Source of the DNA: Proteromonas lacertae
Taxonomy: Eukaryota
Length of the DNA stretch: 64,000 nucleotides
Reading direction: 5' to 3'
Assembly: GCA_002245135.1 (NCBI GenBank)
Contig: NGBS01000605.1
Span: 1-64,000 of the forward strand
Made by a program: the position numbers and the translations under genes. A model generated the notes under the pieces. That model was given only the letters and a program-made list of their open reading frames with translations, searched no databases and was not told the DNA's origin. Positions 52,069 to 52,582 of the stretch are shown here, piece by piece (the first letter of the stretch is position 1; each line of letters opens with the position of its first letter).

Positions 52069-52582
52069 ATGCAAATTTTCGTTAAGACATTAACTGGTAT
52101 ATTTAAATTGGTGATATATAATAGGTAAAACAATTACACTTGATGTAGAACCATCAGATACAATTGATAACGTAAAGGCTAAGATCCAAGATAAAGAAGG
52201 TATTCCACCAGATCAACAAAGATTGATTTTTGCTGGTAAACAATTAGAAGATGGCAGAACATTATCTGATTACAACATCCAAAAAGAATCCACACTTCAT
52301 TTAGTCTTAAGATTAAGAGGTGGAGGTATTTATATTTATTTGATATACAATTGAATAGGCAAAGTACATGGTTCATTATCACGTGCTGGTAAAGTTCGTG
52401 AAAACACACCAAAAGTTGCTAAACAAGAAAAGAAGAGATTACCAAGAGGTAGATGTTTCCTTAGATTAAAGTACAACAGAAGATTCGCCACAGCTATTGT
52501 AAATGGTAAGAGATTAGGACCAAACAAGGCCAAGAAGGCTGAAGCCGCAGCAGCAGCTAAAAAAGCTCAACAAAAAGCTTAA
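52069..52582 (+). CDS. RPS30: Canonical ubiquitin fused to 40S ribosomal protein eS30 (RPS30); exons 52069-52096, 52125-52325, 52359-52582; 150 aa
   Basis: Spliced translation [76 protein letters not shown] followed by [43 protein letters not shown]...GPN. Confidence 0.93.

Follow-up and report, generated by a model that had tools for sequence, protein, structure and literature searches.

A spliced ubiquitin-eS30 gene with an intron at its junction, most likely an inherited stramenopile fusion

Introduction

When a bona fide ubiquitin is found joined to the ribosomal protein eS30, with an intron at the junction of the two halves, does the gene record a recent fusion in its own lineage or an older one that it inherited? 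The question is raised by a locus in a stretch of DNA of 64,000 nucleotides (the window; 26.7% GC), for which an original prediction had proposed a fusion convergent with animal FAU.

The near-universal fusions of ubiquitin have other ribosomal partners, namely eL40 (UBA52/UBI1-2) and eS31 (RPS27A/UBI3), and eS30 is named among the occasional partners in the text of a 2021 survey that accepted a domain only if it matched yeast ubiquitin at 80% identity or more (Martin-Villanueva et al., PMC8122580). Its Table S1 holds nine ubiquitin~Ribosomal_S30 proteins among the 5349 surveyed, from Achlya, Albugo, two Aphanomyces (A0A024U6H6, W4G442), Saprolegnia (T0S0K6), Thraustotheca, Blastocystis ST1 (two proteins, A0A196SE12 and A0A196SHV9) and Capsaspora (A0A0D2X458); in the same table ubiquitin-eS31 is still fused in Blastocystis ST1. 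The accessible part of Sibbald et al. 2019 (PMC6332867) makes no mention of S30. A literature search, with subscription papers and most supplements outside its reach, found no paper devoted to the stramenopile fusion. The abstract of Aleshin et al. 2007 reportedly lists Holozoa, heterotrophic heterokonts (oomycetes plus Blastocystis) and cryptophytes/glaucophytes, and is said to treat Capsaspora as a case of FUBI replaced by ubiquitin. A 2023 paper, reportedly by O'Dea et al., touches on the origin of such fusions. In the part of its text that bears on the matter, ubiquitin was joined to S30 by exon shuffling three times independently, with Aleshin et al. 2007 as the source (PMC10611586).

Results

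A single frame across three exons

The locus is confirmed as a real, spliced fusion gene. It lies on the plus strand between an ATG at 52069-52071 and a TAA at 52580-52582 and comprises three exons and two introns; removal of both introns yields a single frame of 150 aa, made up of a canonical 76-aa ubiquitin, one Gly and eS30, whereas the unspliced frame meets a stop after 19 codons. The coding part of exon 1 (52069-52096) encodes ubiquitin residues 1-9 and the first base of Gly10. Intron 1 (52097-52124; 28 nt, GT..AG) interrupts Gly10 in phase 1, and its removal is demanded by the frame; its GC fraction is 0.18, compared with 0.29-0.39 in the exons. Exon 2 (52125-52325; 201 nt, PF00240) carries ubiquitin residues 10-76 up to LRLRGG. 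Gly76 is the codon at 52322-52324, and a single G, the first base of the eS30 Gly codon, separates it from intron 2 (52326-52358; 33 nt, GT..AG, phase 1), which thus sits at the ubiquitin/eS30 junction. The coding part of exon 3 (52359-52582; PF04758) contains eS30, with its G-KVHGSL start and an 18-aa Lys/Ala-rich tail, and the stop. The original prediction had described a ubiquitin ending in LRLRGG spliced in frame to eS30, with a 33-nt intron one base past Gly76, and both points agree with the reconstructed frame, the Pfam domains and the codon positions. Its exon structure was incomplete, in that the 28-nt intron at 52097-52124 was missing even though the frame requires it.

Transcripts of a close relative

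No public run contained half of the sampled words, and 20 of the 24 rows listed contained a small share. Two runs that we guessed to be RNA, X1 and X2, provided contigs (not raw reads) from a close relative of the window's own strain. These contigs span exons 2 and 3 with an identity of roughly 92-97%, and two contigs of X1 and one of X2 (370 nt, 12 differences) omit exactly 33 nt, bounded by GT..AG, at 52326-52358. After 52622, one X1 contig finishes with 20 consecutive A; a loose start of 12 nt, seen on an X1 contig, resembles the last bases of exon 1 spliced to 52125. We treat X1 and X2 as RNA on the grounds of their 33-nt splice joint and of the contig that finishes in poly(A). The contigs demonstrate a spliced fusion transcript for the close relative, and the junction check by RNA-seq that had been proposed for this gene finds its 33-nt joint there. 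Raw reads from X21 and X23, which bear the same species label as X1 and X2, matched only part of the ubiquitin exon (85-95%) and then ran on unlike it; they therefore represent another organism's ubiquitin genes and are uninformative here.

Two X1 contigs run from ubiquitin, with a loose end after 52330, into G-I-E-P-T-L-A-T-L, a sequence similar to the N-terminus of eL40. In the stored protein P0239, presumably a ubiquitin-eL40, LRLRGG is followed by VIEPSLRLL. This suggests that in the close relative eL40 has stayed joined to ubiquitin. The intron start G/GTATT matches the likely ubiquitin-eL40 junction of the relative, which we regard as a coincidence with the local donor consensus.

The 3' end and the neighbouring genes

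A likely poly(A) site and the motif TGTTTCTT together occupy 52616-52635 on the plus strand, with a genomic run of seven A ending at 52622, where the poly(A) end of the X1 contig falls. TGTTTCTT itself (52628-52635) begins 5 nt past the poly(A) site and 45 nt past the fusion stop. Blastocystis has its downstream element, TGTTTGTT, at the same place (PMC5608401), and the motif in the window is one mismatch off. The downstream motif is weakly enriched in the window (22 occurrences versus 13.3 expected) and is present at 12 of 44 long-ORF ends, compared with 12.5% at random places. The introns of 28 and 33 nt are close in length to the intron mode of 30 nt in Blastocystis (PMC5608401); in low-GC Blastocystis from tortoises (21-23% GC), introns are longer and the motif is not enriched (PMC12129017). 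Together with the low GC content, intron lengths and motif position are indirect clues to lineage, and a Blastocystis-like stramenopile is a likely host of the gene.

Convergent with the fusion gene, its stop 122 nt from the fusion stop, lies an intronless gene for a MOFRL-type glycerate 2-kinase (52705-54078, minus strand; PF13660 and PF05161), which has a perfect TGTTTGTT 42 nt past its stop, mirroring the TGTTTCTT of the fusion gene. The exact kinase sequence was absent from the protein collection searched. In the Atlas, the clusters closest to it are prokaryotic, a result that offers no clue to lineage and that, as the tool itself cautions, should not be taken as evidence of transfer. On the other side, about 530 nt upstream, a Hsp70-like gene starts at 51538 (minus strand) in head-to-head orientation to the fusion gene. 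Some eight single-frame Hsp70-like genes of 430-530 aa form an array on both strands at 15358-29356; the three checked by Pfam all gave PF00012, with matches that stop near position 490 of the 599 in the profile. Further Hsp70-like pieces lie at 38014, 43796 and 50191; those at 43796 (plus) and 50191 (minus) are almost the same in sequence and may stem from a local inverted duplication.

A true ubiquitin and a divergent eS30

The ubiquitin half (PF00240, E 2.1e-29, above the cut-off) is identical to one Plasmodium polyubiquitin unit at 75 of 76 positions and to rat polyubiquitin-C at 74 of 76. All seven lysines and L8/I44/H68/V70 are kept, and the C-terminus is LRLRGG. With its 76 aa and well within the 80% minimum of identity to canonical ubiquitin, it counts as bona fide. 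FUBI is recognized by a 74-aa leader, I13H, Q49P and the loss of most lysines; the window leader has 76 aa, Ile13, Gln49 and seven Lys. Residues and length hence bear out the earlier view that the leader is a true ubiquitin and not FUBI.

The eS30 half comprises 74 aa, including the split Gly codon, of which 31% are Lys or Arg; it has the characteristic start KVHGSL-RAGKV and aligns to positions 1-57 of 58 of PF04758 (E 6.2e-24; 84.4 bits, gathering cut-off 27). It is divergent: the best protein matches listed reach 74-76% over part of it and 65% over 75% of the query. Past the last conserved GPN, 18 Lys/Ala-rich residues follow. Oomycete fusions have tails of 5-8 aa, whereas Ala-rich tails of 14-21 aa also occur on the fused proteins of Hondaea and Cafeteria and on unnamed ones. 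The Lys/Ala-rich extension pointed out previously is real and has parallels on other stramenopile copies. An ESM Atlas search returned known FAU/ubiquitin-S30 clusters only, and a PDB sequence search with an Aphanomyces fusion returned, among 60 listed of 340, only ubiquitin chains and eL40/eS31 fusions.

The fusion is widespread in stramenopiles

With the window eS30 as query against longer proteins, 382 matches were obtained; 14 of the best 120 carry a leader with at least 60 identities to ubiquitin, two of these being named Aphanomyces, and most of the other matches listed are animal FAU. The eS30 region of Aphanomyces invadans gave 2835 matches, the best 120 of which were scored for their junction: LRLRGG-G-KVHG was found in 83, LRLRGG-KVHG in 2, another GG in 10 and no GG in 24, with the motif absent from 1. 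The window gene shares its junction with those 83 of 120, a proportion that is not a frequency in eukaryotes, because an Aphanomyces query favours stramenopiles. No protein named Blastocystis appeared in the best 120 of 382 (window query) or the best 120 of 2835 (Aphanomyces query), and a homology search with an alignment of the whole fusion was swamped by polyubiquitins and gained no fusions.

Full-length fusions were verified by sequence in the oomycetes Aphanomyces (four species), Saprolegnia, Achlya, Thraustotheca, Albugo, Globisporangium and Lagenidium, and also in Hondaea, Cafeteria, Aureoumbra, Epipyxis, Hydrurales CCMP1899, Ochromonadaceae CCMP2298, Paraphysomonas and Chattonella. Hondaea is a labyrinthulomycete, Cafeteria a bicosoecid, and the other six are ochrophytes; several of the ochrophyte records are transcriptome proteins and may stem from prey organisms or contamination, as a Mesodinium data set with two fused proteins illustrates. 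Junctions that lack the extra Gly were seen in P0034, P0295, P0350, P0259 and L041. The stramenopile fusions compared have in common with the window gene a canonical ubiquitin, a Gly and eS30, joined in the same way; relative to Aphanomyces, in a comparison that does not include Blastocystis sequences, the ubiquitin agrees at 74 of 76 positions, whereas the eS30 half is more divergent (57% over the aligned part).

The window gene is therefore another copy of a fusion class that has been recorded for Blastocystis and for oomycetes and that occurs widely among stramenopiles. The claim of a new or lineage-specific fusion falls on this point, which the original prediction had itself named as a ground for refutation, the class being tabulated in Blastocystis ST1 and six oomycetes (PMC8122580) and spread over all main stramenopile branches sampled.

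Departures from the full-length form were also observed. Diatom eS30 is unfused and starts with M-G-K-V-H (Fragilaria, Pseudo-nitzschia; P0322, P0357 and loci such as L009, L011 and L015); inside an otherwise fused group, this is likely a secondary loss. The annotated eS30 proteins of Phytophthora, Plasmopara, Peronospora, Hyaloperonospora and Pythium oligandrum (80-101 aa; P0389-P0403, P0254, P0262, P0268) bear a leader of 17-24 residues, diverged from the last 20 residues of ubiquitin with LRLRGG kept (CLRGG in one); Pfam detected no ubiquitin domain in the four tested. Sister oomycetes have the full ubiquitin, and the short leader is either what is left of a reduced ubiquitin or else the final exon of a ubiquitin-like leader that has drifted. 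A Phytophthora-type eS30 with a ubiquitin remnant is filed under Clostridioides difficile on a contig of 345 nt (P0261) and is almost surely a contaminant. The eS30 of the katablepharid Roombia truncata (P0006) has a divergent ubiquitin-like leader with 35 identities to ubiquitin, a FUBI-like state outside animals.

The intron position is shared with unfused genes

We examined 81 eS30 loci, 80 from metagenomes (the best of 511) and one viral. Contiguous unfused genes starting M-G or M-A accounted for 41, contiguous ubiquitin plus G for 12 and ubiquitin without the extra G for one; the remainder were one other GG leader, six of other kinds and 20 with an AG two bases before the Lys codon. L001 and L048, among these 20, proved to have contiguous GG leaders that mimic acceptors and were dropped. 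L001 (3811 nt), the one animal FAU-like coding stretch in a scan of viral contigs, is possibly the murine sarcoma retrovirus with antisense S30-homologous sequence, a virus mentioned in PMC11499249.

The 18 loci with a phase-1 acceptor between G and K consist of 16 unfused genes (11 distinct) with an ATG G/GT donor 79-586 nt upstream, one with too little upstream DNA, and one ubiquitin fusion, L065. In the latter (835-1198; genome of 53% GC, Ala/Lys-rich tail), a 135-nt intron occupies the identical place at the junction; an ATG G/GT upstream of its ubiquitin leads into a frame unrelated to the gene, and we did not accept it as another possible first exon. L065 is the only one of 14 fused metagenome loci with the junction intron that the window gene keeps, the other 13, some of them maybe transcript-derived, having none. 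As 16 unfused genes have an intron after ATG G, the position exists independently of the fusion, and the junction intron points to a long-standing intron site of eS30, not to a fusion of recent date. Its absence from 13 of 14 fused loci implies that intron loss was common or that the site was regained. Fungal-type eS30 genes (L043, L045, L062, L077, L078) have a phase-0 intron right after the ATG, one base from the phase-1 position.

In an eS30 tree of 64 rows, hand-picked from stored proteins and loci, and 66 columns, the window sequence sat on an end branch of 1.92, in no starred group and beside unfused rows, not with the stramenopile rows. The tree is unable to place the window eS30, and the case for orthology with the stramenopile fusions consequently depends on their common junction and on the clues to lineage.

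Discussion

It is highly likely that the locus is a three-exon ubiquitin-eS30 gene, most probably the inherited stramenopile fusion of a Blastocystis-like gut protist; its product is predicted to be cut after Gly76. By analogy with yeast and human precursors, a general deubiquitinase would cut after LRLRGG and thereby release one conjugatable ubiquitin and an eS30 starting G-K-V-H, which is also how an unfused M-G-K-V-H eS30 would start after loss of its Met. Since the leader is a true ubiquitin, no dedicated protease would be needed. The fusion resembles ubiquitin-eL40 and ubiquitin-eS31 in placing a single canonical ubiquitin before a small basic ribosomal protein, and the same processing and chaperone role are predicted for it: yeast eL40 and eS31 have their ubiquitin leaders removed fast and are aided by them in cis, at the level of expression and in a chaperone-like manner (PMC8122580). 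By the same analogy, the ubiquitin may assist in cis the folding and expression of a very basic small protein and may also feed the ubiquitin pool. Holozoan FAU is alike in having a ubiquitin-fold leader before eS30 and a di-glycine cut site, yet its leader is the 74-aa FUBI (with His, Pro and few Lys; the animal proteins listed reach 25-27 identities over 76 positions) in place of a true ubiquitin, and its predicted cut leaves KVH, whereas the extra Gly of the window gene would leave G-KVH. In vitro, USP36 cleaves FUBI fusions and ubiquitin fusions alike (PMC8354635). Capsaspora owczarzaki (A0A0D2X458) also has a bona fide ubiquitin on eS30, though as a holozoan with a presumably separate history.

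How might the fusion have arisen? We envision a scenario in which a ubiquitin exon came to be spliced to the acceptor of a pre-existing intron located just after the eS30 start codon. Such a joining would have replaced Met1 of eS30 and kept Gly2, which would explain the extra Gly at the junction. The fusion may have occurred once, early in stramenopiles, with most lineages later losing the intron, and the window gene and L065 each keeping one; alternatively, as only one of 14 fused loci has it, the junction intron may represent an independent gain at a favoured site. The intron position and the three origins cited in PMC10611586 fit one part of the original prediction, an exon-shuffling origin separate from animal FAU, and the part that made it a new event of this lineage is lost. 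Were the fusion nevertheless independent and recent in the window's lineage, convergent with both animal FAU and the oomycete fusion, its intron would be a fresh scar. This is unlikely: the LRLRGG-G-KVHG junction is identical in 83 of the best 120 of 2835 matches, Blastocystis ST1 already has the fusion (PMC8122580), L065 contains the same intron in a gene whose eS30 groups with other fused rows, and unfused genes have the intron position as well. An independent origin could appeal to the divergence of the window eS30 and its place outside the stramenopile rows of the tree, to the 13 of 14 fused loci that lack the intron, and to junctions without the extra Gly, which show that fusions or re-trimming can recur; a tree of 66 columns with a long branch, however, provides no support for independence.

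Two other readings concern what becomes of the product. Conceivably, intron 2 acts as a regulated switch, its retention giving a free-ubiquitin precursor, ubiquitin with a throw-away tail of nine residues, at the expense of eS30. Translation agrees with the earlier claim that ubiquitin, a short tail and a stop would result, the 33-nt intron continues in frame to that stop, and the product would be a plausible deubiquitinase substrate. A stop of this kind is nevertheless expected in an AT-rich intron, since 73% of 20,000 shuffles of the interior also contained one in frame. The observed depth in the intron-2 bin (20.1 and 90.2) equals that computed from exon bases alone (20.1 and 90.2), in contigs that drop rare forms and cannot be read for levels; the relative's intron may also be too dissimilar to align, and some low-level retention may occur. 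Moreover, 13 of 14 fused loci have no intron at the junction, and the relative appears to have other ubiquitin sources in its likely ubiquitin-eL40 contigs. We therefore do not retain the claim that intron retention is a source of free ubiquitin, and consider a switch very improbable. It is still harder to believe that the fusion stays uncleaved and leaves ubiquitin on the 40S subunit, as reported for ubiquitin-eS31 of Giardia, where a ubiquitin-ribosomal protein is naturally uncleaved (PMC8122580). The di-glycine is altered in Giardia, whereas LRLRGG is intact in the window gene and followed by Gly, and non-cleavable human FUBI-eS30 blocks late 40S maturation (PMC8354635).

As one more copy of a catalogued fusion, inherited in all likelihood as argued above, the window gene matters little by itself. 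The stramenopile form is, however, easy to overlook, because recent papers treat eS30 fusion mainly as a holozoan FUBI trait (as described in PMC8354635) and because databases mislabel it as polyubiquitin, L40e or S27Ae. A single group that contains a true ubiquitin (the window gene), a drifted remnant (Phytophthora) and no leader at all (diatoms) could be used to ask what the eS30 leader does, and the same comparison could ask why animals needed a dedicated FUBI/USP36 step. Tentatively, and as a possibility that we rate somewhat short of probable, the junction intron may be the relic of one ancient exon-shuffling event in an ancestor common to every stramenopile, those that are not heterotrophic included; the leader would then have been lost in diatoms and have decayed to about 21 residues ending in LRLRGG in Phytophthora and the downy mildews, and the window gene would keep both the pristine ubiquitin and the intron. 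If this proves true, stramenopiles would constitute a natural replay, caught at several stages, of how FUBI arose from ubiquitin.
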